64,000 nucleotides of DNA, from NCBI GenBank assembly GCA_049520555.1, contig JBEKPR010000024.1:1176-65175 (forward strand). Direction: 5' to 3'. Every line of letters begins with the position of its first letter. The first letter of the stretch is position 1. Source of the DNA: Candidatus Korobacteraceae bacterium (GTDB lineage Bacteria > Acidobacteriota > Terriglobia > Terriglobales > Acidobacteriaceae). This document shows, in pieces, positions 8,022 to 41,552 of the stretch. Both the position numbers and the translations under genes were made by a program. A model generated the notes under the pieces. It was not told where the DNA came from. It worked only from the letters and a program-made list of their open reading frames with translations, and did not search any database.

Positions 8022-8037
8022 GGCAGCAGCAGTGTAG

Positions 8038-8398: not shown

Positions 8399-8458
8399 GG
8401 GGACAGACGGAACGTTCCCCAGTTTTTCGAACGAATTGAGATTGGTGAACGTCCGGTC
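8399..8458. repeat. inverted plus direct copies of the 6059-6080 motif
   Basis: 8399-8420 GGGGACAGACGGAACGTTCCCC matches the reverse complement of 6059-6080 at 19 of 22 positions by hand alignment. 8444-8458 GGTGAACGTCCGGTC matches 6059-6073 at 14 of 15 in direct orientation. Confidence 0.5.
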
Positions 8459-8659
8459 TATGCTGGGGGCCCCACTCATTCGCGGGTTTCTAATGAGTGG
8501 GACCGCGAGGCGGAACGCGTTATCCTGAGCGGCCATTCCTGACAATTCACTTTTACCAAGCCCTCTTCGCCGCAAGCATACGTCCGGAAGCTGCTCCATT
8601 TCCACTCTTCGGGTTTTTGAGTGGGAGCACCCGGCCTCCGGAAACCGCCTCGACCTTGG

Positions 8660-8923: not shown

Positions 8924-8946
8924 AATACCTCGGCATAATTTTCTTA

Positions 8947-9010
8947 CTTTGGCGATGGGTAAGTAAAGTAAGATTATCGTAACTATCTTACATGTAAGAA
9001 AATCTGCATA
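8947..9010. promoter_or_regulatory. candidate operator: clustered CTTAC/GTAAG half-sites including a perfect 14-bp palindrome
   Basis: TTTTCTTAC (8947-8955) is inverted relative to GTAAGAAAA (9002-9010). TCTTACATGTAAGA (8995-9008) is a perfect palindrome. The cluster lies 25-85 nt upstream of the AbrB-like start. Confidence 0.4.
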
Positions 9011-9093
9011 GTATGCCGGATGCCTCCCAGGTTCGGCCTTCCGCACACTGCGCTTCGTGAATCGCTCTTTCAGCCTCGCTTGGTACCAAGCGT

Positions 9094-9852: not shown

Positions 9853-10142
9853 GGATTCATTCCTCCCGATATATTCAATTTCCTGTTTTGTTTTCTGCGA
9901 GGCAGTATACCCGATTCGCAATGCCGGAACGGCGGGTGCGCAAGCTCAGGGTAATTGCGCAGGCCGACTGCGATTCTCCGGTCTGCAGTTCACGATTGAG
10001 GTTGCATGACCGGGCAAATAGCCACCCTTTGACAAATAGCCATCTGGACACCACGCGCACTAAGAAAGATTGCAACCTTTTACCTGGCGACTGCCATCAT
10101 CAATAGCAATCTGCCCACTTGGCGTATGGATGATCGATAAAT

Positions 10143-15994: not shown

Positions 15995-16947
15995 TCAGGT
16001 GCCTTCTACTTCAAGTCCGAGGTTGTCGTTCACCGCTTGGCTGAGTTTCTGTTTGCATCCGAGATAGCGTTCCGTTGTTTGAACCGAGGCGTGACCCAGT
16101 AGAAACTGAATCTGTTCAAGTTCTCCGCCCGCCAAATGGCATGACCGTGCACAGGTTCGGCGCAAGTCGTGAGGAGCAAGGTCCTTGATGCCGGCACCCT
16201 TCGCGGCCCCTTTCACGATGTGCCATATTGCCTTGGGCGTGATTCCATCACCCCAGATCTTCCCCAGCCGACTTACTCGCGGGCAGATCGTGCCACCACC
16301 AATGCCAGCCGCCGTGGTCCACTCATCGACGGCGCGTTTCGCCCACACTGGAACCGGAAGTGTGCGGATGTGTTTTCCTTTACCGATGAGGTCAGCAATT
16401 ACCCAGTGCTCCTCGCGGACCTGGAAATCTTTGGTTCCGAGTCCCACCAGTTCGGCCCGTCGTAGTCCGCAACCAATGAGCAGCGCCAGAATCGCGTAAT
16501 CACGTTTGCCTCGAAGGCTGCCTGATGGTAATCCGCCGAGCAAGGTCTTGGACTGTTCGACGGTCAACCAGTTGCCACAATACGAACGCCAAGTCGCTTC
16601 GCCCCTTTGACGCGGCGGATTCCCGCAGCCAGTTCAGGGCTCAGAAGACCAGCGTCGGACGCTTCATAGGCGAGCCGCCTCACGGCGGCCAAGCGGACGT
16701 TGATGGTGGACGGTGCGAGGTTCTTCTGTTCGAGAAAGAAGCGGTAGCGAAGTACAACAGTTCGGTTGAAGGCCAAACGCGGTTCCGAACAATACCAGCC
16801 GATGAACTCGTCGATGGCATGACCGTATGACTCTTGCGAACTGGCCGATGCGAGCGAGTGAAGAACCGCAACCTTCGACTGCTCTAAATCGGGCAGGCGA
16901 AGTACTGTTTTAGCCTTGGAGCGTTTCGAAGTCTTCCGATGTGCCAT
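15995..16947 (-). pseudogene. tyrosine recombinase/integrase, frameshifted
   Basis: ORF 16564..16947 is the SAM-like N-domain and ORF 15995..16567 is the catalytic domain (LRRAEL, HDLRRTCA, LLGHASVQTTERY). The join reads GVRIVATG* where one nt fewer would give GVRIGNWLTVEQ. Confidence 0.75.
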
Positions 16948-20309: not shown

Positions 20310-20612
20310 ATGCCGCCGCGTCACTATAAGAAAGCTCTCAAGCTGGCGAAGGTTCGCTCGTTCGAGGTGTACTCAATCCGTCACACCTTTCTCACCCGGC
20401 TTGGGGAGAGCGGCTGTGATGTTTGGACGCTGGCGCGTGTCGCTGGGCATTCTAATATCAGCATCTCGCAGAGGTATGTTCACCCCTTCGAGGATGCCGT
20501 GCTAAATGCGCTCTCGCGTTTGAGTGGGCACAATTTTGGGCACAGTGCCGAAAACGTGAATTCTGCGAGGTCTGGGGAATTGCTGCTAAGTACCGCCAAC
20601 CGCGAGGGTTAA
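20310..20612 (+). pseudogene. C-terminal fragment of a tyrosine integrase
   Basis: YSIRHTFLTRLGESG...LARVAGHSNISISQRYVHP is the HxxR...H...Y catalytic end. The frame is closed upstream at 20277, so no N-terminal domains are present. It ends 1 nt before the tRNA-derived repeat. Confidence 0.65.
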
Positions 20613-20613
20613 G

Positions 20614-20661
20614 TGGTGAGCGCGGAAGGAATCGAACCTTCAACCTACTGATTAAGAGTCA
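20614..20661 (-). repeat. 48-bp copy of the 3' part of tRNA-Lys (distal att site of the island)
   Basis: TGGTGAGCGCGGAAGGAATCGAACCTTCAACCTACTGATTAAGAGTCA is identical to 37318-37365 by direct reading. Confidence 0.85.
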
Positions 20662-20762: not shown

Positions 20763-21797
20763 CTACGCCCGCTTTTCTGGTGCTGTGTCCTCATCCAGAA
20801 CGGCTCTCACAATTTCCAGCCCTGGGTGCTGGTAGTGCATCGCGGTCTTCACATCCTTGTGGCCCATGATTTTCATTACGACGGCCAGGTTCCCGGTCTT
20901 CTTCAGAATCCGAGTGCCATAGTCGTGGCGCCCGCAATACAGAACTAGATCGGCAGGAAGCCCTGCCTTCTCGCGAGCGTCGCGAAACCAGTTCGCCATC
21001 GTGGTGAGATGGCCGCCCTGAGCCCGCTTGGACGGAAACACCCATCCTTCCCGCCTTGTGCCACACCGCTCCTTAAGAATATCGAAGACGCGTGTGCTCA
21101 TCGGCACGTTTCTCCTCCCCTCTTCGGTCTTGCTGTCTGGCACGAAGATGAGTTGATAGTCCCAATCCAGGTTCTCAATGCGCATCCGGTAAAGCTCTCT
21201 TTCGTTGCGCATGCCGGTATCGCGCATCAAAATGACGATGTCCCGGAAAAGTTGAAGGCTGCGCCTCCGCCAGTTGCAAGCAGCCGCGCCCGCCAACAAT
21301 TTCCTTTCTGCTTCCTGGTCGAGCCTGAGGGAACGTCCGTATTCCTTCATCAGCCTGAGCTTGGGGGCATGGCGAATTAGCTTCCACTCTTCCGCCTTGT
21401 GCAACATCCTTCGGAGTGTTCTCAGCGCGCAATTGGCGTTCGAGGACGAGCCGGGAAATCTCATCGTTTCGATTACGTCGCTCGTGATCTGATCCAATCG
21501 CATGCCAACGATGGCCGTCGTCTTCAGTAGTCGCCAACCATCCCGGTAATAGGTTTTTGTTTTGTCTTCCAGGCTGACATTATCCAGCCATTCCAGGAAG
21601 TGCCGTGAAAACTCCAGCAATACGGGAGCTTTCTTGGGTAACGGGTCTGCGTTCTCTACCGCCTGGGCGAGTTTCAGACCGGCAATCTTCGCCGCCCTGG
21701 CTGCCTTGGTTTCGTTAGTTGATCCACGGTAGCGCTGACCGCGCACTGTGAAATCAAACCAGTAAAACTTGGACTTCGATTTCTTAAACAGCTTCAC
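20763..21797 (-). CDS. int: tyrosine integrase (phage-integrase family)
   Basis: Catalytic motifs GMRNEREL (Arg), GRHDYGTR (HxxR), MGHKDVKTAMHYQH (H...Y). The preferred start is the GTG at 21797 (MKLFKKSKSKFYWFDF), preceded by GGAGGA; the track start is 21830. Confidence 0.9.
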   Translation of the reverse strand: MKLFKKSKSKFYWFDFTVRGQRYRGSTNETKAARAAKIAGLKLAQAVENADPLPKKAPVLLEFSRHFLEWLDNVSLEDKTKTYYRDGWRLLKTTAIVGMRLDQITSDVIETMRFPGSSSNANCALRTLRRMLHKAEEWKLIRHAPKLRLMKEYGRSLRLDQEAERKLLAGAAACNWRRRSLQLFRDIVILMRDTGMRNERELYRMRIENLDWDYQLIFVPDSKTEEGRRNVPMSTRVFDILKERCGTRREGWVFPSKRAQGGHLTTMANWFRDAREKAGLPADLVLYCGRHDYGTRILKKTGNLAVVMKIMGHKDVKTAMHYQHPGLEIVRAVLDEDTAPEKRA

Positions 21798-22032
21798 GAG
21801 CTTCCTCCATTGCAGCCCGCACGGAAGCAACTCGTGTGTTCTCTTGGATGTATTCCAGAAGAACGTTCACATCATAGCTAATTCGACCTTGCAGTTCTAT
21901 CCAATTTGGGCCGACCCCCTCAGCGCGCCATCGTTTCAAAGTTGCGGCGGAACGCCCGAGAATCTCGGCGGCTCTGCGCGTGTCCACGAGGTGCGGAATG
22001 GGTGGTTTCTTGATTGGTGTTGGTTGGGACAT
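21784..22032 (-). CDS. excisionase / helix-turn-helix DNA-binding protein
   Basis: Internal ATG at 22032 with a GAGGAG upstream. VDTRRAAEILGRSAATLKRWRAEGVGPNWIELQGRISY is an excisionase-type HTH. The stop overlaps the integrase start. Confidence 0.65.
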   Translation of the reverse strand: MSQPTPIKKPPIPHLVDTRRAAEILGRSAATLKRWRAEGVGPNWIELQGRISYDVNVLLEYIQENTRVASVRAAMEEAREAV

Positions 22033-22208
22033 GGCTCTTCTGCTCCTCATAAAACTTCTGAACTTATTCACCCATCGCCTGGCTGTGGCCTTCTCCTGCG
22101 GTGTGCCCTTGCGATTGCGGTGCAATACCGTGGTGCTGGCCGGCATCGTACTCTGCAGACGACGACCCGATTTTGTGTCCAACTCCTGTTTCATATTCCT
22201 GTCCTTTC

Positions 22209-24209
22209 TCAATGGCCGTGCGGTGCGAAACATCGCGACTCAAATGCTCCGGCGAGTTCCGACTTGTTGTTGGTGTAAATCTGCGCGTCGTAGCGGCCAC
22301 GCGAGACAGCTACGTAGGCCATGCGGCTGTTGACCAAGTGGACGCTCTCTTCGGTGTCCGCATGAACCAAAACTCGGTCGGCGGTCTGGCCCTGGCTGCT
22401 GTGGCTGGTGACGGCATAGCCGTAGTCGAGATGAGGGTGGTCTTTGAGGTGGAACTCCACCAGCCTTCCCGAATCCGTGTGTATGGCAATGTCACCGCGT
22501 TCATCGAGACGCGCAATCGTTCCGAGCTCCCGGTTGGCGACATGTAACTCTTTCGATGGGGCGGTGAGCCGCTCGATCTCCATCTCGCCAATCGTGTCGC
22601 TGATCCACTGGGCAGCCCGTGGCTCACTGGTTTTCAGGAAGATTTTAGTTGCGGGCTGGGAGAACATGGCCTCCGCCGCATGGCCGTAAATGGCCTCTAA
22701 CTGGCTACGGCCCTGAAAACACAGGACAACTGGGTTTCCGGCCTTGCGGTTTTCGGTAATGGCAGTCAGTAGTTGCGGGAGCCGGTGTAACGATGAAAGC
22801 TCATCCAGGACGAACCAAACAGGGCGCGGGCCGCGTCGACCCTGGTTCATCAACCGCAGGATCATCATGTCGAGCCACATGCTGATGAGTGGACGCAACT
22901 GCTCCCTGGCTTCCGGGATACTGGTAACGAAGACCCAGCCTTGTCGATGGCCCGACCATTCGGCCGCCGTCCAACTTTTTTTGACCGATTGCACTTTGAC
23001 TGGTGACGGCAGCAATTTGAGACTGTCGGCAACCATGCTGAGGGCACCGAACATGCCACCGCGTTGCGGTCCGGCGTTCTCATAAACCATTGCAGCCAGC
23101 GGCGTGCCTTTCAGTCGTCGTTCCAGTTCGTGTTCGTCGCTTAGCCAGCCCAGCAACTCCTCGGGTGTGGGCTTGAGGTTGAGTAGATGGGCGAAGATCT
23201 TGCGTGGACCCTGGACGAAGAATGGGTTCTCCCGGTCAGTTTCCGGGAAGAGGGACGCAGCCAAAGTCAGGGCCTCCGAAGGCCGGGTTACTTCATCGGA
23301 GGGCGACCAATAAGGCATCCGCTCGTCTAACGGATTCAGGATTACATCCCCGCGTTCCGGACAGTAGAACTGGCCGGTGTATTCGAGAGCAGGATCGTAG
23401 ACGACAGCCGTTTCTCCGCGTTTAGAAATCTGAGCTAAGACCTGTCGAATGAGTGAGGATTTACCGCTCCCGGAATCCCCCATAAAGAGGAAATGGTTGT
23501 CTTCAATCGAGCGCTGGATGTATATCCGCGTGCCGTTGCGGCGCAACAGGCGTTCCGAGAAAGCTGGTGGTTCAAGTGTTCCGAAACCGATACCGTCAGA
23601 TCGATTGCGGCGGTTGAACTGGGCTGCTGTGACCTCTTCCGGACCTCGCAGCGGTCGCCCCTGCTTGCATAGCTGCGCGTTCTGTTTGTCCTTGGAAATG
23701 GCTGCTGGCAGGCCCAAGACCAGCAAGCCCAAGCCGCACAGGAGCGGCCCGCGCGCCAAGTCCTTGAGGCTCTGCCCCCGGTACACAGCATCCCGCAGTT
23801 CGTTCTTGATGAGTTCGTTTTTCCAGGGTCTGGGCGGTGTGAGTATCAACCGCTTCCCCTGCCGCTCCGCGTCCTCGGTTAAAGCGAAAGGAATGCGGCG
23901 TCCGTCCGGCGCGGTCGTCAAACCCTGCCGCACGTCGTTCTGAGTTGGCAGGTAGCCGGCTCCGTCCCGGTGCAAGACGAGCATCAGGTCGTACTTGCTG
24001 GTGGAGACGTTGAATTTGGGCATGATGTTGGCGGACAGGTAAGTCATCAGCCAATACTGCTGCATGGGCGTACAGGCTTGGCATCGCAGCCACAACCCGC
24101 CGCATGTGACGGCCAAGGCAAGGAACAATACGCCGTACGTCCAGAGTGGCTTGTCACTCGGCCAGGACTGGATTTCCACTCGTCCCCATTTGTCCCTCAT
24201 TACTCTCAC
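22209..24209 (-). CDS. type IV coupling protein (TraD/VirD4-like) fused to the C-terminal tail of a MobF-type relaxase/helicase
   Basis: N-terminal TM segments; Walker A FMGDSGSGKSS; Walker B VWFVLDELSSL. The last ~118 aa (DYGYAVTSHSSQGQTADRVLV...AYVAVSRGR) look like the UvrD_C end of TraA/TrwC relaxases. Confidence 0.7.
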   Translation of the reverse strand: MRVMRDKWGRVEIQSWPSDKPLWTYGVLFLALAVTCGGLWLRCQACTPMQQYWLMTYLSANIMPKFNVSTSKYDLMLVLHRDGAGYLPTQNDVRQGLTTAPDGRRIPFALTEDAERQGKRLILTPPRPWKNELIKNELRDAVYRGQSLKDLARGPLLCGLGLLVLGLPAAISKDKQNAQLCKQGRPLRGPEEVTAAQFNRRNRSDGIGFGTLEPPAFSERLLRRNGTRIYIQRSIEDNHFLFMGDSGSGKSSLIRQVLAQISKRGETAVVYDPALEYTGQFYCPERGDVILNPLDERMPYWSPSDEVTRPSEALTLAASLFPETDRENPFFVQGPRKIFAHLLNLKPTPEELLGWLSDEHELERRLKGTPLAAMVYENAGPQRGGMFGALSMVADSLKLLPSPVKVQSVKKSWTAAEWSGHRQGWVFVTSIPEAREQLRPLISMWLDMMILRLMNQGRRGPRPVWFVLDELSSLHRLPQLLTAITENRKAGNPVVLCFQGRSQLEAIYGHAAEAMFSQPATKIFLKTSEPRAAQWISDTIGEMEIERLTAPSKELHVANRELGTIARLDERGDIAIHTDSGRLVEFHLKDHPHLDYGYAVTSHSSQGQTADRVLVHADTEESVHLVNSRMAYVAVSRGRYDAQIYTNNKSELAGAFESRCFAPHGH

Positions 24210-24443
24210 CCGCCATTTCCGCCCGTTGCGGGCGTACTCAAATCACGGCGGAGATTCGCATGGTTTCAGGATTCGGTCAAACGGGCGCGTTTTCGGGGGT
24301 TGTCATCGCGTGAGCTAACACGCGTGACCGCGAAGGCAGTGTTGCGAGACAATACAGTTATCGCACATCAGCTTTCACCGGTCGGATCTTCCTCCTAACC
24401 CTGAGCTCCCGAGGAAAGCGGATGACGATTGGGAGCATGTCAC

Positions 24444-27400
24444 ATGCCACTCGCAGGAGGCCCTGCCGACAAACTGGGGAATCGGTACGAACTCTGGTGG
24501 ACTGTCATTCAGATCCAGAACATTCTTCACGGCCAATGGGACTCAATTCGTCTAGAAGTCCCTGGCATCGATAAAGCTGAATTTGTCTTAAGCAAAGGCT
24601 GCAAGCATGTCTTCCATCAAGCGAAAAGAAGCGCCATCGACGGAAAATGGAGCCTTTCGGAGCTTTCATCCCCAAACAATCGCGTTCTTCAGGGCATTGA
24701 AGGACAATTGCGCCTCCCACAGAATAGCTACGTCTTTGTGTCAAGCAGCGATGCTCGTGAGTTAGCTGAGCTATCTGAAAGGGCACGTGATTCACATTCG
24801 CTTCAAGAGTTCAATGACTTTTTCGTGAAGAGCAAAGAGCAACTCCAAAGACTCGCGCGACTCCAGCGGGTTTGGAATAACTGTGACCGAGCGACAGCCT
24901 TTGAATATCTCCGCCGAATCGAAATTCGCGTCCTTGATGAGAACAGTTTGAAAGATCAGGCTCTTCGCGGCGCGCAATCCCTCTTTCTCGCGCCCCCGAC
25001 CAATGTCTGCTCAGAAATGCGCAGCCTTGCACTCGACTCCGTGCATCGCACTCTCACGCGATCGGAGATCATCGCGCATCTCGCAAAGGCGGGATATACG
25101 ATGAGACAAGTCGTATCGTTTGATGACGCAAAGATCGTCGTCGAAGCTGTCACCGAAAGGTATCTTCAGGGTGCTCGCTCACGATTTATTCAGGGGAGGT
25201 TGATACCTCGAGCAGCAACAAATCAGCTCATCTCCAACATCGGCTCCGCGGGATCCGATTGCGTTCTTACCGGGCATGCGGGAACGGGAAAGACCGGTTG
25301 TCTATCCGAGTTCGTAGAAAAACTCAAGTCCGATGGGGTTCCGGTCTTGGCATTCCGGTTAGATCGCGTCGATCCAGTATCCACCACGACAGAACTCGGC
25401 CGGAAGCTGGGTTTGGACGAGTCTCCAGCGCTTCTCTTGGCTGCGGCGTGTGAGGGGCGGCAGGCGGTATTAATAATCGATCAACTTGATGCCATTAGTA
25501 CCACCTCCGGCAGAACTACGGGCTTTTTCGATGCGGTGGAGTCACTGTTGAACGAGGTGAGGGGCTTGCGCATGCGGGCGGAGATCCATGTCGTCGTTGC
25601 GTGTAGAGAATTCGATTGGAGGAATGATCACAGGCTCAGAAAGCTTCTCCCCACCGGCCACAATCATATTGCGATCGGCAATCTAGACAGAGACCAAGTC
25701 ATCGAAATACTGCAGAAAGCCGGCTACGTGGTTGGTTCTCTCAATCCGTCGCAACTTGAGCTGCTCAGTCTTCCTCAGAATCTCTCACTTTTCTTAGAAT
25801 CGGGTTTCACTTCTGAAACACCGTTGAGCACTGCACTCGATCTTTATGACAGGTATTGGACCGTTAAATGGACGGCTGTCGCACAGCGTACGGCTCCGAC
25901 TGCGGACAACTGGAGTGCCGCCATCCAGGCCTTGGTTGACGGCATGACGGCGAGCCAACAACTGTCCATTCGTCGGGAGGCCCTAGATCGAATTCCGCCT
26001 GACTACGTTGACCAGATGGTTTCCGAAGGCGTCATCACACGCGATGGCCGGAGAATTGGGTTTGGCCATGAAAGCTTCTTCGATTATTGCTTTGCTCGGT
26101 TGTTTGTTGGCAAGTCTCGTTCGCTCGTGGAGTTCCTTCTGGAAAGTGAACAGCATCTCTTTCGACGAGCGCAGGTACGACAGGTTTTGCAATATCTCCA
26201 TGAAGACGAGCCCTCCCGTTTCTGTCAGGAACTCGAAGACCTAATCAACCATCCCCAGATTCGGATTCACTTGAAAGACCTTGCTCTGGCAGTCGCAGCG
26301 AGCAGCACAACAATTTCTTCGGCCGAGTGGGATTTGTGGATGCGGCTTATAGAGCCGCGCATGGTGGCGGTTCGCAATGGTTCGGCTCCAGATGCCCTGA
26401 CCGTGCTTGCTTGGAAACATTTCTTCGGCTCATCTTCGCTTTTCGAACATGGGCTTCAGTTCAATTTGGTTAAGGGTTGGTTGGAATCAGGAAACGATGC
26501 TGTCGCCGATATTGGGTTTTCCTATCTGCGAATGCACGAAGCGCGGTTTTCTCGCGAGGCTGCATCACTGCTGTCGCCCTTCGTCGGGCAAGGTGAGACT
26601 TGGAAAAAGCGGCTTGTATGGTTCATGCAATTGGTGAATCTTAACGGAAGCCGCGAGATGTTCGACCTATTTCTGAGACTGCTCGAAGACGGGACGCTTG
26701 ACGAGGCTCGTGGTCCCATCGCGGTAAACAGTACGTTCTGGAATCTTCTCTACGACATTTCTGATAAGCAGCCGGGAAGAGTATGCGAAATTGTTGCTTG
26801 TTGGCTCAATCGTCAGTGGCGACTTGCTCAGGAATCGCAAACGGATGATCAACACATTTCTTCTAGAGGCGATGCTTTTGCTGACGAGCCAATTACAAGG
26901 GCAGCAAATGGTGCTCCCAGCGACTACATAAAGCACGTCCTACCTGTAGTGCTCTCCATCTCTTCCTGGGCGAAATACGCGGATGATGAGCGGCCGAGGA
27001 AAGACAGGATATGGCCATATCTTATGGTGCGCGAACACGGAGAAGCGCCATATGATGCCGCGTTGACCCATCTGCAAGGAGCCTTGGCCAAGGTTTCTTC
27101 GAGTAACCCTGAAGAGCTTGATGCCTATGTGGACACGTTGAGTCAACTGGACACAAATGTCGGCAACGTTCTGCTCCTCAGCATCTTCGCTGGGAACGGT
27201 AAATATTTCGCGGACGAAGCGGTGCGGCTTTTCGGAAAACAGCCCTGGCGTTTCCAAAGCGGGCTTTCAAACAACTCACACTGGTTTGCGCAGAAAGCGA
27301 TTCAAGCAATCTGCGTTCACTGTTCCAAGGAACAATTGGCCGAACTTGAATCGACGATCCGTGCGTATGTCTCACCCTGGGAAAAAGATCGATTCGGTTA

Positions 27401-28958
27401 CAAGTATCACGGGAAGGCAAGATTTAACTTGCTTGCGGCAATACCTGCTGAACTGCGGAGCCTGCAAGGGAGCATCGCCTTCAGAGAACTTGAGAGAAAG
27501 TTTGGTCAACCTGACGGAGAACCTCAAGGTCTACGAGGAGGTTTGGTGGGACCGCCAATCCCGAAGGACAAGCTCTCGAGAATGGACGACGAAGCAGTAC
27601 TTGCTGCGATCGCTCACTTCAGCGCCGGAAAGCGGCCCCGACAATATCGAGATTATCTAAAGGGAGGAAACACCGAATTTGCACGAGCAATAGCGCAAAT
27701 GGCAGAGAAAGAACCATACCGATTCGCCAAGCTCGCTCTACGAATGCCGGCTGAATCAGAGCCCGTCTATCTTGATGAACTGTTACGCGGGTTTCAGAAG
27801 GCATCTATCGATGACACCGCAAAGCTCGAGATTTGTGGAAAAGCCTATCGCGAGCACCGAGACAGTTGCGGGCGGGCGCTCGCGGACGTGCTTGGCGCGA
27901 TCGAAACTCCGTTACCCGACGACAGTCTAGAACAACTTGCATGGCTTGCAACTGATAGCTCTGATCCGAAAGAGGAAGTCTGGAAGAAAGACGGTTCTGG
28001 AGGGACCCCCTACTACGGAGGCGATGCCTACACTCATGGAATTAATTCAACCCGAGGGTGCGCAGCCCTCGCAATCGGCAATCTCATTCTCCACGACTCA
28101 GCATACATTCTACGATTCGGTCCGACGCTGCAAAAACTCGCCAACGAGGAAAGTGAAAGTGTCCAATCTTGCGTGGCGTTTACGCTTCGGGCAGTCGCGG
28201 TTTGCGACTATTCGTATGCGATGGCGCTGTTTCAACAATGCTGCGTAAAGGTTCCTTCACTGCCATGCAGCCGCCATGGTTACGAGCTCATCCGCGTCGG
28301 CCTCAGGTATCACTTTGAGTTGCTTCGCCCCTATCTGGAGTCTATGCTCCAAAGCTCCCAGCCCGAGTGTATTGAAGCAGGTACACATCTCGCCTGCATC
28401 GCGGCATTAACAAACAAAAGTGCTGAGGATATAGCAAATGCCACCGCAAATGGCTCGGACAAGCAAAGAGTTGCTGCTGCCCGAATCGCCTCAGCGAACC
28501 TGGGTGTAGAAGAGTGTCGTCCGTGGTGCGAGAAACAGTTGCTCCGCTTTTTCAATGACTCGGATGAGGAAGTGCGGAAAACTGCGGGTGACTGCTTTCG
28601 CCGAATTGAGGAGCAACCCTTAGAAAGCTTTGCCGAACTGATTGAGGCATACTGCCGCAGTGCTGCCTACGAGGACAACTCCCATTCGTTGCTGCAGACC
28701 CTCGATGAGTCCACCGAAAAGTTACCTGGAATCGTCTGCATGGCATGTGAACTGTTCTTGAAACGCTTTGGATGTGAGGCGAGGGACTTCAGCACGGGTC
28801 GAGCAGCGGATGGCTATACAGTCTCCAAATTGATCTTCCGGGTCTACCATCAACATCAGCGGGACGAATGGGCTGCCCGAGCGCTTGATGTGATCGATCA
28901 GTTGTGCCAAGAAGGCGTGGGCGAGGTGATAACACAACTGCAAGAGTTCGACCGGTAG
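24444..28958 (+). CDS. large three-part protein: N-terminal nuclease-like domain, STAND-like P-loop NTPase, C-terminal HEAT/ARM-like repeats (Avs-like defence candidate)
   Basis: ATG at 24444 follows GGGAG; the track start is a TTG at 24429. The N-terminus reads GNRYELWW...IRLEVPGIDKAEFVL...HQAKRS. Walker A is GHAGTGKT (25272-25295) and Walker B is VLIIDQLDA. The ~1000-aa helical tail contains HEAT-like units such as FFNDSDEEVRKTAGDCF. Confidence 0.7.
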   Translation: MPLAGGPADKLGNRYELWWTVIQIQNILHGQWDSIRLEVPGIDKAEFVLSKGCKHVFHQAKRSAIDGKWSLSELSSPNNRVLQGIEGQLRLPQNSYVFVSSSDARELAELSERARDSHSLQEFNDFFVKSKEQLQRLARLQRVWNNCDRATAFEYLRRIEIRVLDENSLKDQALRGAQSLFLAPPTNVCSEMRSLALDSVHRTLTRSEIIAHLAKAGYTMRQVVSFDDAKIVVEAVTERYLQGARSRFIQGRLIPRAATNQLISNIGSAGSDCVLTGHAGTGKTGCLSEFVEKLKSDGVPVLAFRLDRVDPVSTTTELGRKLGLDESPALLLAAACEGRQAVLIIDQLDAISTTSGRTTGFFDAVESLLNEVRGLRMRAEIHVVVACREFDWRNDHRLRKLLPTGHNHIAIGNLDRDQVIEILQKAGYVVGSLNPSQLELLSLPQNLSLFLESGFTSETPLSTALDLYDRYWTVKWTAVAQRTAPTADNWSAAIQALVDGMTASQQLSIRREALDRIPPDYVDQMVSEGVITRDGRRIGFGHESFFDYCFARLFVGKSRSLVEFLLESEQHLFRRAQVRQVLQYLHEDEPSRFCQELEDLINHPQIRIHLKDLALAVAASSTTISSAEWDLWMRLIEPRMVAVRNGSAPDALTVLAWKHFFGSSSLFEHGLQFNLVKGWLESGNDAVADIGFSYLRMHEARFSREAASLLSPFVGQGETWKKRLVWFMQLVNLNGSREMFDLFLRLLEDGTLDEARGPIAVNSTFWNLLYDISDKQPGRVCEIVACWLNRQWRLAQESQTDDQHISSRGDAFADEPITRAANGAPSDYIKHVLPVVLSISSWAKYADDERPRKDRIWPYLMVREHGEAPYDAALTHLQGALAKVSSSNPEELDAYVDTLSQLDTNVGNVLLLSIFAGNGKYFADEAVRLFGKQPWRFQSGLSNNSHWFAQKAIQAICVHCSKEQLAELESTIRAYVSPWEKDRFGYKYHGKARFNLLAAIPAELRSLQGSIAFRELERKFGQPDGEPQGLRGGLVGPPIPKDKLSRMDDEAVLAAIAHFSAGKRPRQYRDYLKGGNTEFARAIAQMAEKEPYRFAKLALRMPAESEPVYLDELLRGFQKASIDDTAKLEICGKAYREHRDSCGRALADVLGAIETPLPDDSLEQLAWLATDSSDPKEEVWKKDGSGGTPYYGGDAYTHGINSTRGCAALAIGNLILHDSAYILRFGPTLQKLANEESESVQSCVAFTLRAVAVCDYSYAMALFQQCCVKVPSLPCSRHGYELIRVGLRYHFELLRPYLESMLQSSQPECIEAGTHLACIAALTNKSAEDIANATANGSDKQRVAAARIASANLGVEECRPWCEKQLLRFFNDSDEEVRKTAGDCFRRIEEQPLESFAELIEAYCRSAAYEDNSHSLLQTLDESTEKLPGIVCMACELFLKRFGCEARDFSTGRAADGYTVSKLIFRVYHQHQRDEWAARALDVIDQLCQEGVGEVITQLQEFDR

Positions 28959-29215
28959 CTCTGCTGGGCTGACGCTTGCCGTTATGACTTCAATTACTTT
29001 GCTGACTCGATCCTGAGTGGAGAGAGCGTCATAATCTTCTCGTGGGTTCAAGCAGGCTCGAAATGCGTACAGTGCGAGGTCGAGCGCTACTGGCGCTTCC
29101 GGAAATCTGGGCGAGTGCTAGTGGATGGCCGACCTGTTGGTGAGCTCCACTTGCGAATTACTCGAAGGGGCAGCTACACCGCTACACCCTCGGTTCTCCC
29201 AGCTGCGACGGACTC

Positions 29216-29641
29216 CTAACGTGGGGAACTCGGCGAGTCGTCGGGCGAGAACAGTTGCGAAGACGACTCCGAGTTTCGCCGCGCTTCACTATGCCGCAGG
29301 CGCTCCACGGCCGTGGTGAGTTTCTGCGCGTCGGCCCAATGGATAACCTCTTGCACCTTCTCTGGCGATAGTCTTTCTTCATTTCCGAGAGCGCGCAGCA
29401 GGTTGATCGTAATCATCCTCAGGCCGACAACCTCGCCCAGAAGCGTCTCCTCGGCGAGGCTGGCCACAGGTGGCTTCAATTGCGCAAGAAGTACATCGCG
29501 GCACCACTCGCCTACGGTTAGCCCGCGATGTTGAGCCAACGCCGCAAGCTGCGTGTACTCTTCCTCCGTGACCTTCGCTCCAGCCGATCTTGTGCGCGAA
29601 ATACCCATCATTAACTTAAGAACCTCCCTCACCGCCGCCAT
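29216..29641 (-). CDS. ribbon-helix-helix protein (MobC/CopG-like)
   Basis: ISRTRSAGAKVTEEEYTQLAALAQHRGLTVGEWCRDVLLAQL fits the MobC-type RHH pattern. A possible alternative start is at 29611. Confidence 0.5.
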   Translation of the reverse strand: MAAVREVLKLMMGISRTRSAGAKVTEEEYTQLAALAQHRGLTVGEWCRDVLLAQLKPPVASLAEETLLGEVVGLRMITINLLRALGNEERLSPEKVQEVIHWADAQKLTTAVERLRHSEARRNSESSSQLFSPDDSPSSPR

Positions 29642-29958: not shown

Positions 29959-30348
29959 TCAGCCTAGAGAACTGGCCCCGTCGCTCCTGTTCATCACCTT
30001 CTCAATGAGTTTGAAGCATCCATACATGATGCCGTAATCCAGTACCCCCAGGGGCAAAAGCGCGTAACCGGGATAGCTCTTGTCGGTCCAAGGGATGAGC
30101 AGAACGAAAAACAGATGAAGGGCGATCAGGATCGCTGCTGTTGTCCAGAACCATACGTGTTTCCTCAAGTCCCAGCAGGCTCTAACAACTGTCATGCTCA
30201 CGCCAACAGAGATTGCTGCGGCTCTCCCCCTCCCTGGGTCTCCCAGAAGTGCAAACAGAAAGAATGGAGGTACCATGCATAGGATTACCATTAGAAGCCA
30301 TTTGCGAGTGAACACGTTGCGAGATTGATTTTCATTCAGCTCTGTCAT
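29959..30348 (-). CDS. candidate immunity protein (polytopic membrane protein)
   Basis: MTELNEN... starts at an ATG sharing one nt with the RHS stop (TGATG), implying translational coupling. It has about four hydrophobic helices (LLMVILCMVPPFFLFALL, AAAISVGVSMTVV, FWTTAAILIALHLFFVLLI, ALLPLGVLDYGIMYGCF). Confidence 0.55.
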   Translation of the reverse strand: MTELNENQSRNVFTRKWLLMVILCMVPPFFLFALLGDPGRGRAAAISVGVSMTVVRACWDLRKHVWFWTTAAILIALHLFFVLLIPWTDKSYPGYALLPLGVLDYGIMYGCFKLIEKVMNRSDGASSLG

Positions 30349-33300
30349 CAGTGCCCCGCCATGCATGATTGGTAGTCCTTATAGGTGTGCCATGCATCGT
30401 TCAAGCCCCCAGCCCCACTAACCAGTGCTCCGAGGACCGGCACTGCCTTCGCCCCAGTCAGCACAAGAGCTGACAATTGGAACCCAGCTATACTCCCGAG
30501 GGCACCAGGCGTATCTCCATTCGCGGCGCTATTGATGGTAGATGCGGCACCCACTGCCATCCCGCCTAGGGCCACGCCAAGGTCTCCACCAGGCAAGAAA
30601 CCAGCCCCAACACCAGCGAGGTCAAGCGTAAGTGCCACTCCATTTCTGCGCAAAGCGTCGGCGAGGCATTTTTGCTTCTTCTTGGAATCGTCGCAAAGGC
30701 CCAGTGGATCAATCAGGTTGATGGGATTGCTGCGGGTGTAGTCGTAGAAGTTGATCCCGCCCAGGAACTCGATCGGATCGCGGTTGATGAATCGTCCGGT
30801 TACTCCGTCCAGGGCGCGATAGGTGCCGAGATTCAGAGCACTGGCAGGATGGTACAGCAACCCTGCGAAGTGGTAATCGGTGGGCGTGTAGCCAAAGCTG
30901 CGGTCGAAGCTACCATAGGGCGCGTAATCATAGGCATCGAGCAGGACGCCTGTCGCCCCCTCGAGCACATCTCGCACCGAGCCCAACTGGTCAGGCATGT
31001 AGATCAGGGGTTCCCCGTTTGGGACGTCCAGTTCCCCCTCGGCCATATGGCGCCGCAGCACGGTGTCGCCGCCGTCCCGGGTCTGGCATAGATGGCCATT
31101 ATGGCACCAGAGATAGCGGAAGGTATTTGTGCCGCCTAGAGCGCCGGTCTCAACGTCGATGATTCTCCGCCCCAGCCCGTCATAGGAAAACTGCGACTTG
31201 GCATTGCTGCCCACGTAATCGATCTCCACCAGCCGGTTCTCCGCGTCCCACTTGTAGGTGCGGGTTCCGTCGCCACTCAGGGTGTTACCGTTGGCATCAT
31301 AGAAATAATTGCTCCCACCCCAAGTGCTGATCTCGTTCAGGGGATTGTAGGTCGCTTGCGTTTTGTTCGCGCCGATCGTGACGCTGGTCGCGTTGTCAAC
31401 CAGATCGTAACCATATGCATGGTAGTTAATTGGCGGGGCAAACGTGGCGCTGAGCAGGCGGTCGCTGAGGTCGTAGGTGTAAGTGTGAGTGTCGCCACCG
31501 AACGGATGGCCCGGTGCCGGCGACTCTGTGATCGACATTACATCATAAGGATTGTTAGCGCCTCCACCTCCCGGAATGACATAGCTGAGCGTGTAGCTGC
31601 GGGTAACACCGCTGTTGTTGATGGCGATGAGTCGGCGGTCGTTATTATTGGTGTCGTAGCTCCAGCCAGTGCTTACGTAAATTCCGGTTCGCGATCTCAA
31701 ATTTCGCAGTGTCACCTGGTTGGTCTGTCCCAGATAATAGTAGAAAAAGGTCCCGACGCCTGAATGGGAAGTGAGGCGGCTGATGGCGTCGTAGCCGAAG
31801 GTCTCATTAGCTCCAGGGATACTACGTGTGCTCATGCGCCCGAGCGCGTCATAGGCATAGCTAATTGAGTCGTTGTTGAACGGTCCAGTTTCGGAGGCTA
31901 GTTGGAGGGCGCCGTTCGTACCGATCGGAGTATAGGTGTAGCTCGTGGTACCGGTGCCGTCCGTCATGGAAGTCAGGCGCGGGAAGTATGGATCGTAGCC
32001 GAAGGTTACGTTCGGCGTTGGGTTAGCGGCATTGGTGTATGTGATCCCGGTCAGACGATCATCGAGCCCGTAGCTATAGTTTTTCATTTGACTGAGCGCG
32101 TCCGTGAGCGACTTCAGCCGACTGGTGGTTTGTTCATACGTCAGAGTTTCAGTTTCTGCATAAGCCGTGCCATAGGCATAGGTCTTCGAGATCGGACGGC
32201 CCTCAAGGTCTATCTCCCAGTGTGTTACGTTGCCGTTCGCATCTGTGATGTCTTTGAGCACTCCATTTTCATAATAGTCGTAAGTCGTGGTGCGACCGTT
32301 ATTGCCTATGGGCTCGGTCACACTGGTCACTCGCCGATCGGCGTCGTAGCCATAGGTCGTCACCCGCCCGAGCCGGTCAGTATGCTTGCGGAGCTCAAGG
32401 CTAGGTGTGCCTTGAAGAGGCCCGCTCTGAAAAGTCCAGTCGTATAGGTCGCTCGTTCCATCCGGATAGGTGATCTGCGTCACACGGTCAAGATTGTCGT
32501 AATTGTAGGTTAGCGTGTATCCCTCGGAATCCGTTCGGGTGCGCACCCGGTCGGCCGAGTCATAAGTAAGCGTGAGCACGGTCTGGTGGTTAGGGTTCTG
32601 CACCGTGGATAAGCGGCCCGTAGAGTCGTAGTTAAAAGTTGTCAGGCCAGAGTTCGGATCCGTGATAGTGGCGAGCTGTCCGGCTGCGTTATACGTATAC
32701 TGCCACGCCTTCCCGTCGGCTCCGGTATAGGTTTGCGGCTCGTGCTGGTTGTTGTAGTTGGAGAATGCTGCGATGGTCTGAAGACCCGACGATGTATTCT
32801 GCTGGACGGTCAGCAGGTCGATATTGTTGGAGGCGTAGGTAAACTGAGTTAACCGGCCGAGCGCATCAGTGATAGAGGTGGGCTTCCCACCGAAGCCGCC
32901 GTTGCCGCCGTTATACGTAGCTCTTGTCAGTTGCGTCGATCCACTGTCAAGCACGCGACCGGCAGCGCTAGGCCGGTCGAGAGATCCATTTTCAAGGGAT
33001 GACGGCTGATTTGGGTAATTGTACCAGATGCGGTTTTCGAGAGACGGCTTGATACTTTCTGGCGTCCTGCCCGTCACATTAGGGAAATTGTTCTGATCGT
33101 GCACCCAGTGCGTGGTGTGCGAGTCGTAAGGATTTTCGGTGTGAATGCTGCCGTCGGGATTCAGCGTCACTGCGCCGGGGTAGTTAAAAGCGTGCTTGTC
33201 ATAGTAGTAGGTGTTGCGATACTCCAGATATGCATTGGTGAGATTCATGCCCGATGGCAGCGTGTTTGAAGGATCGGAGTCGTGGATGAAATTCGGGTAT

Positions 33301-35390
33301 TGATAAAAATATAGAAACTCGGTGTAGCCGAGTGGATCCTTCATCGTGAGCGCCCGCGTGCTCCCGTCCCCCGTTGGGTCGCCGGTAGGCAGCGCGTCAG
33401 AGAAAACCGAAACGCCATAAGGAGTGGTCAAGTTGGTTATGAAGTTCGGCTCAGTCACTGAATATGTAAAGCTTGAGGTGATTCCAATCGGATCAGTAAT
33501 GGAGGCGAGACGCTGGATGGAGTCATACGTGAGCTGTGAATAGCGTCCGAACGCATCGGTGATTCTCGTAATCAGCAGCGGATAATTTGCAAGACCATAG
33601 GTAAAAGTCGTGCTGCGCCCCATGGCATCAGTGACTGAAGTAAGGCGGAAACGGCTATCATAGTTCAGGGTGGTAATGTTGCCTGCGGGATCGATAACCT
33701 CAGTCAGGAACATGATACGGGGAAACGTCTGCGCACCGTTAGACAGGGCGTATACCTCTGTGCTGCCATCCGGCAGATTGCGCTGGTAAGAGGTCGCCGG
33801 ACCGGTCGGCGGAATGCGCACTAGCTGGGAGTCGTCGTATGTCTCGGCAGTAAAAGTGCCGTTGCCAGAGTTATAGCTTCCTGCAGGATAGACAATGCCC
33901 CCACCTCCAGAAGCGTAGCGGCTGACCGAGGCCCCTGGACTGTTGGGATCGTCTTGGATGTAGGCAAGCCAGCTGAACGTCCATTTTGGACTCACATTCG
34001 AGAAGCTGAAATTCGCAGGTTGTTGGTCTTCGCGCTGATTGTAGAATAGTGTTACCAGGGCAGAAGGACCCTTTTGGGGTCGGTAGCCCACTGGCGTATC
34101 AGTCAGGTTGAGGCTCACCGACATCATAATGGCATCGGCGACGGTCATCTGGGGAGCGCAACTATTCTGCGCGGGAGCGACTTGCGGAGCGTCCCCGTTG
34201 CAGTCGGCATGCTTGTCGTTCGTCGTCGTCGTGCCCGGAAGGTCTTGATTGGTGACACCCATTCCATATACCGCACGAGCTTCATCCGAATCGGCGTTCA
34301 CCGTGCGCCAGCCACTCTTTGGAGCGGCATCAAACACGGAAGCGGGAACCAGAAAGTATCCGCTGCTCTCGGCGTCAATCGCCTTTGCGGTAAGCAGGGC
34401 ACCTGCGTTGCCTCCAAAGGTTGGGTCTAGCACCTGGTACAGCCCTTGCTGTTTACCTGTTATGGCCGCATAGTGATGGGCGTTCCAGTTAACCACCGAC
34501 GGCACGGGGACAGGCTGGCCTGGATCACGGTGAATCAGCTTATAGTTGAGCTGCGTCTCATCGGCGAGCGCCGCCAGTTGCGCAAGCGAAAATCCATGCG
34601 GACCGGAACGCGCGTCGTCTGCGATCTTTATCTCACTGGGGCTGGCTTTTAGGGTGGTCAACAGGTTCTCGAGCGCTTTGGGCCCGCAGAGATAAGCGAC
34701 GCTAGGGTTATGTTGAAACTCCCACAGCCCTTCGTGCGCGCCCTGTATCATTTCTGTTGCCGAGCCGCTAATCGGACGCTGTCCAATGTCCGCGAACAAG
34801 GCCTCAAGTTCCTTCTCGTGTCCCAACCGTGCGTGCATCCGGGCGAGTTCACCGACGGCGCGATCCACCATGATTCTGGCCTGCGGCGTTGTGGCATTCC
34901 GTCCAAGCACCCAAGCTTGCTGCCACGATGTAAGCGCCCGGGTGAAATAACCCGCATAATAGTAGCCGACGCCGAGATCGGTAAGTATGGCCGCATTCCA
35001 GGGCGAGCCTGGATGCATAGACGCATAGGCTACAAGCGGTTTGGCATAATCCGCGAAGTCGGCTTGAGGATCCGAATTCACAGGTGCCTTTTTGTAGGCG
35101 GCAATTGCGGCATCAAGATCGGCATCCTCTTCGTGTGTCGTTGGGCCCGTCGCAACAAGTGGCTCCTCCAATCCGGGGACAAATCGCATCGGCGGCGGCG
35201 GCGGTAACTGCACCTGCGGCGGAGCTTTGGGTATGACCGTCGGAATCGGGTGCGAAGATGCGGACAACTTAGGCGAGAGTGAGGCCTGTTGGCGCTGATT
35301 ATCAGATGCAAGACTGACACTTGAAGCTGACATGGTCAAAAGCAGCGTCAGGCAAAACACAAAGCGCTGTGGAACGTGCCGATGGCGCAT
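30348..35390 (-). CDS. secreted RHS/YD-repeat toxin with N-terminal C39-like peptidase domain and glycine-zipper C-terminal domain
   Basis: ATG at 35390 follows AGGAG. Signal peptide: MRHRHVPQRFVFCLTLLLTMSASSVSLA. There are dozens of YD repeats (YxYDxxGRL), an RHS core end (FINRDPIEFLGGINFYDYTRSNPINLIDPLGL) and a 115-aa tail. Confidence 0.9.
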   Translation of the reverse strand: MRHRHVPQRFVFCLTLLLTMSASSVSLASDNQRQQASLSPKLSASSHPIPTVIPKAPPQVQLPPPPPMRFVPGLEEPLVATGPTTHEEDADLDAAIAAYKKAPVNSDPQADFADYAKPLVAYASMHPGSPWNAAILTDLGVGYYYAGYFTRALTSWQQAWVLGRNATTPQARIMVDRAVGELARMHARLGHEKELEALFADIGQRPISGSATEMIQGAHEGLWEFQHNPSVAYLCGPKALENLLTTLKASPSEIKIADDARSGPHGFSLAQLAALADETQLNYKLIHRDPGQPVPVPSVVNWNAHHYAAITGKQQGLYQVLDPTFGGNAGALLTAKAIDAESSGYFLVPASVFDAAPKSGWRTVNADSDEARAVYGMGVTNQDLPGTTTTNDKHADCNGDAPQVAPAQNSCAPQMTVADAIMMSVSLNLTDTPVGYRPQKGPSALVTLFYNQREDQQPANFSFSNVSPKWTFSWLAYIQDDPNSPGASVSRYASGGGGIVYPAGSYNSGNGTFTAETYDDSQLVRIPPTGPATSYQRNLPDGSTEVYALSNGAQTFPRIMFLTEVIDPAGNITTLNYDSRFRLTSVTDAMGRSTTFTYGLANYPLLITRITDAFGRYSQLTYDSIQRLASITDPIGITSSFTYSVTEPNFITNLTTPYGVSVFSDALPTGDPTGDGSTRALTMKDPLGYTEFLYFYQYPNFIHDSDPSNTLPSGMNLTNAYLEYRNTYYYDKHAFNYPGAVTLNPDGSIHTENPYDSHTTHWVHDQNNFPNVTGRTPESIKPSLENRIWYNYPNQPSSLENGSLDRPSAAGRVLDSGSTQLTRATYNGGNGGFGGKPTSITDALGRLTQFTYASNNIDLLTVQQNTSSGLQTIAAFSNYNNQHEPQTYTGADGKAWQYTYNAAGQLATITDPNSGLTTFNYDSTGRLSTVQNPNHQTVLTLTYDSADRVRTRTDSEGYTLTYNYDNLDRVTQITYPDGTSDLYDWTFQSGPLQGTPSLELRKHTDRLGRVTTYGYDADRRVTSVTEPIGNNGRTTTYDYYENGVLKDITDANGNVTHWEIDLEGRPISKTYAYGTAYAETETLTYEQTTSRLKSLTDALSQMKNYSYGLDDRLTGITYTNAANPTPNVTFGYDPYFPRLTSMTDGTGTTSYTYTPIGTNGALQLASETGPFNNDSISYAYDALGRMSTRSIPGANETFGYDAISRLTSHSGVGTFFYYYLGQTNQVTLRNLRSRTGIYVSTGWSYDTNNNDRRLIAINNSGVTRSYTLSYVIPGGGGANNPYDVMSITESPAPGHPFGGDTHTYTYDLSDRLLSATFAPPINYHAYGYDLVDNATSVTIGANKTQATYNPLNEISTWGGSNYFYDANGNTLSGDGTRTYKWDAENRLVEIDYVGSNAKSQFSYDGLGRRIIDVETGALGGTNTFRYLWCHNGHLCQTRDGGDTVLRRHMAEGELDVPNGEPLIYMPDQLGSVRDVLEGATGVLLDAYDYAPYGSFDRSFGYTPTDYHFAGLLYHPASALNLGTYRALDGVTGRFINRDPIEFLGGINFYDYTRSNPINLIDPLGLCDDSKKKQKCLADALRRNGVALTLDLAGVGAGFLPGGDLGVALGGMAVGAASTINSAANGDTPGALGSIAGFQLSALVLTGAKAVPVLGALVSGAGGLNDAWHTYKDYQSCMAGH

Positions 35391-35797
35391 CACGAAGCTC
35401 CTGATGAACAAAATTGCCAATTTGCACAGATAAGAGCAGAATTCGGATCGGAAGAGATGATAAGAAAGTGGTGCAGAGTTTCTTCGATATCCTAGAGGCT
35501 GTCAAGACCACTTAAGTGTGTTTACGAGAAAGTGACCTTACCCCTAGATTCATCCGCCTGAGCATACGAGATTCCTGGGTTCCTAGTGTCCAATTTGTCT
35601 TTCGCTTCGCCTTCCTAGCTTGTTTTTCCTTCACTACCGAGATGGACCTGGGTCAAGGCCGAGCGTAGCGATCCAGCAGATCTTGCTCTTTACCCAGCAG
35701 CGTCGCCTGAAACTCGACTTGCGATGGTGCTGGTCGCCTATAAGCTGCGAGTGGCCTCAGGCCGGGCACCTGTCGTAATGACAGGTGCACTCATCCT

Positions 35798-37317: not shown

Positions 37318-37393
<76 letters not shown>

Positions 37394-38612: not shown

Positions 38613-41552
<2,940 letters not shown>

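Follow-up and report, generated by a model that had tools for sequence, protein, structure and literature searches.

The window analysed here is the whole 64,000-nt stretch of contig JBEKPR010000024.1 (assembly GCA_049520555.1) of a Candidatus Korobacteraceae bacterium, and our subject is one long gene on its + strand, discussed below as a candidate antiphage receptor of the Avs7 type. An uninterrupted open reading frame (ORF), counted from the first in-frame TTG, spans 24429-28958. We take the ATG at 24444 as the probable start codon, because a GGGAG lies upstream and because the resulting MPLPGG start matches the homologues (this N-terminus is common to the window protein and more than 100 of them). 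Translation from this ATG gives 1504 amino acids (aa) and a stop, with the N-terminus MPLAGGPADKLGNRYELWW. An earlier interpretation made from the letters alone (hereafter the sequence-only reading) had proposed this 1504-aa ORF, a Walker A motif GHAGTGKT at 25272-25295, a Walker B motif VLIIDQLDA and a base composition richer in AT than the surroundings. The frame and its start are borne out, both motifs are present as quoted, and the GC content is 0.515-0.541 over 24-29 kb versus 0.549-0.598 in neighbouring 1-kb windows, with values up to 0.64 elsewhere in the window. The protein is identical to MGA3055270.1, annotated as 'ATP-binding protein [Candidatus Korobacteraceae bacterium]' (Acidobacteriota). 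With ~1500 codons and 941 relatives at E≤1e-3, a chance origin of the ORF is far excluded. A scan of 24100-29300 for sigma-70 promoters and intrinsic terminators gave none above shuffled expectation and none at the gene ends. The features of the gene and its product are given below; structure predictions are from AlphaFold2 (AF2), and i-E denotes the independent E-value of a single stretch.

24431..24435, + strand: Shine-Dalgarno-like GGGAG with an 8-nt spacer to the ATG (read directly in the sequence)
24444..28958, + strand: complete coding sequence, 1504 aa and stop (ORF call, translation, identity to MGA3055270.1)
24444..25178, + strand: aa 1-245, predicted effector, Cap4-like PD-(D/E)xK double-stranded DNA (dsDNA) nuclease with helical linker (AF2, Pfam in relatives, hhalign)
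24489..24491, + strand: E16, invariant acidic residue in helix 1, aligned with Q15 of the SeAvs7 relatives (alignments)
24555..24581, + strand: E38 to E46, RLEVPGIDKAEF, invariant and near-invariant acidic residues, strands 1-2 (43-sequence alignment)
24618..24626, + strand: Q59-A-K61, (D/E/Q)xK motif, aligned with Q60-C-K62 of SeAvs7 (profile alignment)
25191..26303, + strand: aa ~250-620, STAND NTPase with nucleotide-binding domain (NBD), helical domain and winged helix (weak Pfam matches, PADLOC, Foldseek, SeAvs7 match at i-E 5.7e-37)
25272..25295, + strand: Walker A GHAGTGKT, aa 277-284; K283/T284 correspond to SeAvs7 K291/T292 (translation, alignment)
25467..25490, + strand: Walker B VLIIDQLD (VLIIDQLDA is aa 342-350); D346 corresponds to SeAvs7 D358 and D349 to D361
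25605..25607, + strand: R388, sensor-1 Arg, corresponding to SeAvs7 R395 (alignment; role from PMC13581612)
26067..26069, + strand: H542 in the invariant GFGHESFFDY, corresponding to the SeAvs7 winged-helix H545 (alignment; role from the bioRxiv version)
26304..27287, + strand: aa 621-948, N-terminal part of the sensor, all-helical, least conserved stretch (AF2, conservation, hhalign)
27288..28955, + strand: aa 949-1504, C-terminal part of the sensor, HEAT/TPR-like solenoid (HMM match, Pfam, AF2, Foldseek)

The only significant relative of solved structure that was found by sequence is 9n00_A, a 1523-aa 'AAA family ATPase' (E 1.3e-21 with the single sequence). This entry is apo SeAvs7, the Avs7 protein of Salmonella enterica (Lee et al., bioRxiv 10.64898/2026.01.04.697583; Nature 2026, PMC13581612), for which the structures PDB 9N00, 9N01 and 9YIX are available (PMC13581612). 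A profile of 30 sequences matched SeAvs7 at E=8.9e-35 in three collinear stretches, and two sensor stretches were independently significant with this narrower profile (i-E 1.4e-5 and 3.8e-5). The profile of 43 sequences (A6) raised the match to E=8e-67 in two collinear stretches that reach the last residue of both proteins: the first aligns residues 60-662 to SeAvs7 59-658 (i-E 5.7e-37), and in the C-terminal part of the sensor residues 949-1503 match SeAvs7 943-1522 (i-E 7.8e-25). Pairwise BLASTP against SeAvs7 gave 23.7% identity over 371 aa of the NTPase and 25.2% over 127 aa of a sensor segment. We also prepared a profile on the SeAvs7 side, for which residues 59-658 were transcribed from the alignment, relatives were retrieved and 23 of them aligned. 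Comparison of the two profiles by hhalign gave a probability of 100% and E=1.7e-47 over 965 columns, with 1-1041 aligned to 1-1035 at 18% identity. The alignment ends at ~1041 because most relatives retrieved with the SeAvs7 fragment were truncated metagenomic proteins no longer than 1050 aa; the sensor beyond this point is covered by the hidden Markov model (HMM) match to the PDB sequence of SeAvs7. Together the two comparisons give unbroken homology: hhalign covers it from residue 1 across the nuclease, the NTPase and the beginning of the sensor, and the PDB match covers the remainder. The sequence-only reading had recognised the logic of Avs proteins in the gene, and the window protein is indeed a full-length homologue of SeAvs7.

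For the N-terminus, the sequence-only reading had suggested a nuclease of the Cap4/DUF4297 or the Mrr type. The former holds and the latter is the poorer fit: from sequence comparison and the structural model, residues 1-245 are predicted to be a Cap4-like PD-(D/E)xK nuclease. In the AF2 model of aa 1-640 (mean predicted local distance difference test score, pLDDT, of 87) the core has the order alpha-beta-beta-beta-alpha-beta (H14-28, E34-37, E47-51, E54-61, H81-88, E94-100), and the motif string RLEVPGIDKAEFVL...HQAKRS occupies aa 36-63. Residues G5, G6, K10, G12, E16, W19, E38, F47, Q59, K61 and W69 are invariant in the 43-sequence alignment and Y15, E46, H58 and R62 nearly so; D43, which lies inside the string quoted by the sequence-only reading, is not conserved there. 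E38 and E46 are putative metal ligands. The matching residues G11-D12-x-Y14-Q15, E36/D38, D45/D46 and Q60-x-K62 are carried by the SeAvs7 relatives (23 sequences aligned), and by hhalign the nuclease domain aligns from residue 1 with their Cap4 domain, which in SeAvs7 is experimentally active (PMC13581612). Pfam Cap4_nuclease (PF14130) is matched by the N-termini of 2 of 17 close and 9 of 29 more distant relatives, with a best E of 2e-5 (residues 5-181 against positions 2-176 of the 200 in the profile), and is the sole Pfam family matched by the N-terminus of more than one relative; the scores displayed for three relatives, 14.7-16 bits, are under the gathering cutoff of 26.2 bits. The Cap4-like call accordingly comes from fold topology, recurrent sub-threshold Pfam matches and profile-profile alignment, and is not a Pfam call. 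An Mrr-type nuclease was rejected because the recurrent family and motif matches are to Cap4.

The central module, judged from its sequence and its modelled structure, belongs to the STAND NTPase superfamily, in agreement with the sequence-only reading. K283, D346, R388 and H542 are invariant in the family and T284 is near-invariant, while R357, likewise invariant or near-invariant, corresponds to R367 of SeAvs7, described as 'partially conserved'. In SeAvs7, R395 touches the gamma-phosphate of ATP (PMC13581612) and H545 touches the beta-phosphate of ADP in the autoinhibited state (10.64898/2026.01.04.697583). A Foldseek search with the model of the N-terminal half gave Avs3 as the best match (8DGC, E 1e-13, 766 columns), then Avs4 (8DGF, 2e-12), followed by NLRP2, NLRP3, NLRC4, NLRP9 and NOD2, with Apaf-1 and CED-4 lower; the Foldseek probability was 1.00 for Avs3, Avs4, NLRP3, NLRC4, NOD2, Apaf-1 and CED-4. 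The match to Avs4, which is Mrr-like, is explained by the NTPase common to both.

The long HEAT-like helical sensor of the sequence-only reading is likewise recovered. The AF2 model of aa 601-1504 is all-helical with a pLDDT of 87.5, and a sub-threshold Pfam HEAT match (aa 1366-1388) includes DSDEEVRKTAGDCFRRIE. The sensor's N-terminal part is inside the continuous hhalign alignment, where the per-column confidence was only partly displayed. The SeAvs7 sensor is bilobed and sharply bent, and it envelops an HK97-fold capsid protein (PMC13581612).

Family libraries say less about this gene. Pfam gave weak matches of the window protein to AAA_22, AAA_16, AAA, nSTAND_NTPase5 and NACHT at aa 250-425 (the NACHT score is 19.6 bits versus a cutoff of 26.7) and weak HEAT matches, with no match over aa 1-245, and the NCBIfam scan of the protein gave nothing useful. 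PADLOC v2 returned a partial match, aa 273-558 at E 1e-24, to two PDC-M54A models whose profiles are 1621-1657 long, and no other PADLOC family was matched at E≤1. As the Pfam, NCBIfam and PADLOC matches are only weak or partial, the gene has no name in these libraries, which date from 2023-2025. Filing it under the multi-gene PDC-M54 was rejected, since the match is limited to the NTPase and no PADLOC partner is found among the neighbours.

Relatives are numerous. The 941 mentioned above came from a search of 5.8 billion proteins, and the best 120 of them are nearly all full-length (~1,500-1,515 aa) and 44-75% identical. Among the GTDB species genomes the carriers are nearly all metagenome-assembled genomes. 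Those in Acidobacteriota include Granulicella (58% identity) and Terriglobus (54%); relatives of 39-47% identity occur in Latescibacterota, Binatia, Omnitrophota, Gamma-, Alpha- and Betaproteobacteria, Spirochaetia, Rhodothermales, Gemmatimonadota and Thermodesulfobacteriota, and relatives of 35-43% in Verrucomicrobiota. The profile of the N-terminal 245 aa alone retrieved 1,860 representatives of clusters made at 50% identity, and the full-length proteins among the best 150 listed are nearly all of ~1,500 aa. The degree of conservation varies rather little along the protein, with minima at aa ~600-700 and 800-900. The family shows a uniformity that is unusual for an immune sensor, with lengths of ~1,495-1,520 aa and identities mostly at or above 45%, sensor included, across more than 10 phyla.

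Taken together, these results make it likely that the window protein is an Avs7-type single-protein antiphage receptor. It is a tripartite single polypeptide of ~1,500 aa with effector, STAND NTPase and helical sensor, the architecture by which Avs7 is recognised, and on sequence grounds every family-defining Avs7 feature that could be tested is present. The sequence-only reading could name no subtype for the gene; the PADLOC run gives no AVAST call, in line with that reading, and the subtype can now be named as Avs7-type. Lee et al. curate 3,272 Avs7 sequences, with a tree of 1,757 representatives and 684 structural clusters of sensors (PMC13581612). The window protein probably belongs to a distant environmental Avs7 clade with a Cap4 effector. 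Avs7 proteins were described, together with their trigger and structure, in 2026; the gene is therefore an uncharacterised new member, and it opens no new mechanism.

The Avs7-like gene is AT-richer cargo of a 16.7-kb element at a tRNA-Lys gene, and this element is probably mobilisable. The sequence-only reading had placed the gene between transfer-gene remnants on a tRNA island. The element is indeed bracketed by perfect, direct 48-nt repeats of tRNA-Lys(CTT) sequence (16,704 bp repeat to repeat), and the gene is flanked by a coupling-protein gene, which is its divergent neighbour, and by a NikA-like gene. The other features of the element are as follows (att, attachment site).

20614..20661, no strand: distal att repeat, whose 48 nt match the tRNA-Lys 3' part exactly (sequence comparison)
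20763..21830, - strand: tyrosine integrase (Pfam Phage_integrase, E 1.6e-20)
21784..22194, - strand: small HTH_17 excisionase-like gene (gene call and faint Pfam match in the identical loci L080-L082)
22209..24209, - strand: TraD/TrwB-type type IV coupling protein with C-terminal helicase-like tail (Pfam TrwB_AAD_bind, E 1e-67)
29216..29641, - strand: NikA-like mobilisation accessory protein (Pfam NikA-like, E 8.6e-6, just under cutoff)
30348..35420, - strand: RHS/YD-shell protein, 1690 aa, with a Peptidase_C39-like region at aa 245-358
37318..37393, - strand: tRNA-Lys(CTT), whose 3' 48 nt (37318-37365) are the proximal att repeat

No relaxase was recognised among the genes of the element, which can therefore fairly be described as integrative and probably mobilisable, with remnants of transfer genes, and no PADLOC partner lies near the Avs7-like gene in the window. 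The identical protein in identical context was found in five independent metagenome assemblies. The integrase is placed at the end of the element distal from the tRNA. A 135-aa ORF without any family match overlaps the 3' end of the RHS gene by 19 nt (the pair spans 29959-35420 on the - strand), and the two look like a polymorphic toxin with a putative immunity gene. Beyond the distal repeat there are two fragments of the integrase family, one of 190 aa at 15995-16567 (- strand) and one of 100 aa at 20310-20612 (+ strand) that ends 1 nt before the repeat; they look like remains of older insertions into this tRNA-Lys site (tandem island decay). On the other side of the tRNA, aa 935-977 of a 979-aa ORF (38613-41552, - strand) match PADLOC PDC-S12 and E2-type models at E 1.8e-9; this ORF overlaps long opposite-strand ORFs and may be no real gene.

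In other phyla the context of the homologues is defence-rich. All-against-all clustering of the ORFs of 79 related loci found no universally conserved partner gene. In ~10-12 of these loci (including L005, L007, L008, L009 and L004) the homologue stands directly downstream of hsdR-hsdM-hsdS on the same strand. The hsdS gene ends ~45 nt before the start of the homologue, and in L005 the region of this type I restriction-modification (R-M) operon is 4390-9955. Unusually, the HsdR ORF of that locus also matches Peptidase_S24 (aa 87-203), perhaps because the ORF is over-extended or fused. The Pfam families most frequent in 93 flanking genes (48 loci) were AAA_21/AAA_15/AAA_23 ATPases (9), HsdM (5), N6_N4 methylases (4) and HsdS (3), and further families were ResIII, Eco57I, BrxL, AbiEii and transposases. 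Several loci, the window not being one of them, have a + strand gene of ~570-585 aa that starts 60-190 nt after the stop of the homologue:

L005 14711-16474, + strand: ~570-585-aa downstream gene
L007 14676-16385, + strand: ~570-585-aa downstream gene
L008 14577-16316, + strand: ~570-585-aa downstream gene
L009 14586-16325, + strand: ~570-585-aa downstream gene
L017 14572-16311, + strand: ~570-585-aa downstream gene
L032 14593-16311, + strand: ~570-585-aa downstream gene
L052 14705-16462, + strand: ~570-585-aa downstream gene

The scan of flanking genes gives family totals only, and these ~570-585-aa genes are not tied individually to the ATPase matches.

The gene, its three-domain architecture, its full-length homology, the conserved catalytic and nucleotide-contacting residues, the location on a mobile island and the defence context are directly supported, and a mechanism can be proposed that follows SeAvs7 by homology (PMC13581612; 10.64898/2026.01.04.697583). 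At rest the protein would be an ADP-bound, autoinhibited monomer in which H542 contacts the beta-phosphate while the nuclease is kept sequestered against NBD and sensor C-lobe. Upon infection the sensor would wrap a monomeric conserved phage protein, most probably an HK97-fold major capsid protein. The NTPase would then open and ADP would be replaced by ATP, bound by K283/T284, D346 and R388, after which the NTPase and Cap4 domains would assemble into a tetramer. The assembled Cap4 domains, through E16, E38/E46 and Q59-x-K61, would degrade dsDNA indiscriminately, and the infection would be aborted. We infer the identity of the trigger, the stoichiometry of the oligomer, the DNase activity and the abortive outcome by analogy with SeAvs7.

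Several results weigh against this assignment or against a trigger shared with SeAvs7. The identity to SeAvs7 is only ~18-24%. Pfam Cap4_nuclease gave no match for the window protein even at E≤10, profiles restricted to the N-terminus (A4, A5) found nothing meaningful among the PDB sequences, and no AVAST, DSR1 or bNACHT model of PADLOC v2 matched the window protein. Foldseek related the model of the sensor to generic HEAT/ARM solenoids (karyopherin, CAND1, SF3B1) with template modelling (TM) scores of 0.2-0.3, matches too general to tell one sensor type from another, and 9N00/9YIX were absent among the listed matches. Sensor residues ~662-948 are left unaligned by the HMM search to the single SeAvs7 sequence and align only at the profile-profile level; since this N-terminal part, which in SeAvs7 helps to envelop the capsid protein, is the least conserved, the trigger could differ from that of SeAvs7. 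The five residues of the EF-Tu interface that were mutated in SeAvs7, Q999, D1003, K1044, H1048 and D1059, correspond to S1010, R1014, A1054, H1058 and D1070 in the window protein, and the positions vary within the family. Only two of the five are kept, so that EF-Tu, which SeAvs7 uses as a cofactor, is an improbable or at least unsupported cofactor here. The use of EF-Tu is confined to one Avs7 clade (PMC13581612), and the interface is a feature of that clade that does not define the Avs7 family. The diverged N-terminal sensor part and the replaced EF-Tu contacts make it conceivable, if rather unlikely in our estimate, that the gene represents a distinct and very large environmental Avs7 clade whose sensor recognises some other conserved target, or which relies on another host cofactor or does without one. 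The close family, mostly at or above 45% identity over 1,500 aa, extends over Acidobacteriota, Latescibacterota, Binatia, Omnitrophota, Spirochaetia and Proteobacteria, and relatives with 35-38% identity are found in Verrucomicrobiota. If this reading were true, the even and strong conservation of the sensor across phyla would point to a nearly invariant feature of viruses or mobile elements.

An alternative explanation keeps the same Cap4-STAND chassis and the same output by oligomerisation and cutting but gives the sensor a trigger other than the major capsid protein, which could be a different conserved protein of the phage or one encoded by a rival mobile element. Its arguments are the low conservation of aa ~600-900 and the failure of the HMM search to align them, the replacement of most of the mutated EF-Tu contact residues, the position of the gene on a mobilisable element alongside a putative RHS toxin, and the finding of Lee et al. 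(PMC13581612) that look-alike helical sensors of different Avs families sense 13 different phage proteins. However, the C-terminal part of the sensor is homologous to that of SeAvs7 up to the last residue, and the Avs7 sensor type responds to capsid protein even when it is fused to unrelated effectors such as that of Dsr1 (PMC13581612), and we regard such a trigger as unlikely. That the gene is one subunit of a multi-gene system, PDC-M54 or one linked to type I R-M, and that the window holds an orphan copy, is very improbable. PADLOC does match only the 'A' protein of a candidate system with several genes, in the ~10-12 loci described above the gene directly follows hsdR-hsdM-hsdS, and in several loci a gene for a putative ATPase of ~570 aa comes after it; but that match covers the NTPase only, no neighbour is conserved across most loci, no partner stands in the window, SeAvs7 works as a single gene (PMC13581612), and the identical gene and island are maintained in the five independent assemblies. 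The least probable reading of all is that the protein is a STAND regulator or scaffold without an immune role, or that the gene is a passenger in decay. Many clades of STAND proteins have no link to defence (PMC13581612) and the Pfam matches on the window protein are all weak, yet the protein has a predicted nuclease effector with invariant catalytic residues, its frame is intact over 4.5 kb, it is conserved at 45% or more over its whole length across more than 10 phyla, and its homologues have defence genes as neighbours.

With an Avs7-type receptor in this window, a design for which Salmonella and E. coli have so far been the study organisms turns out to be abundant and highly conserved among uncultured phyla of soils and sediments, and to move on small mobilisable islands that target tRNA genes. 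The protein is a candidate for asking whether capsid sensing extends to the phages of Acidobacteriota, and whether the co-option of EF-Tu is a clade-specific addition. For annotation, a protein now labelled 'ATP-binding protein' or 'hypothetical protein' would receive a specific assignment to defence, which PADLOC v2 fails to give.

Among known systems the closest is SeAvs7, with the same order of Cap4 nuclease, STAND NTPase and helical sensor, a similar length (1504 versus 1523 aa), collinear homology over essentially the whole protein in which the QxK motif, Walker A and B, the sensor-1 Arg, the winged-helix His and Arg367 are all mapped, and a single-gene, horizontally mobile organisation. 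It differs in its host, an enterobacterium in place of the acidobacterium (Ca. Korobacteraceae) of the window, and in that S1010, R1014 and A1054 of the window protein replace Q999, D1003 and K1044. By the PADLOC v2 models the window protein falls outside AVAST types 1-5. SeAvs3 and EcAvs4 (AVAST 3 and 4; 8DGC and 8DGF) are nevertheless the best Foldseek matches of its N-terminal half, and Avs3 also has a Cap4 nuclease before its STAND NTPase and forms a nuclease-active tetramer on a phage protein; in contrast to SeAvs7, neither gave a sequence-level match in the PDB search, there is no PADLOC AVAST match, and their sensors recognise the large terminase or the portal and are unrelated to the sensor of the window protein. 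CBASS Cap4 (PF14130, formerly DUF4297) shares the GG..G.RYE start, the acidic residues and QxK, although the scores displayed for relatives stay under the gathering cutoff and the window protein is not matched at all; activation here would be by STAND oligomerisation and not by a SAVED domain that binds cyclic oligonucleotides. Defence-associated sirtuin 1 (Dsr1) has a capsid-sensing helical sensor of the Avs7 type (Lee et al., PMC13581612), and the likeness to that sensor is by their description; Dsr1 differs in having a SIR2 effector and no STAND NTPase. The NACHT modules of the NLRs NLRP3, NLRC4 and NOD2 match the NTPase in Foldseek at E 1e-9 to 1e-7 with target-normalised TM scores of ~0.4-0.58. 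Identity to them is 13-17%, effector and sensor differ, and Pfam NACHT is below its cutoff, but the logic is alike, leading from a sensor through a nucleotide switch and an oligomer to an effector.

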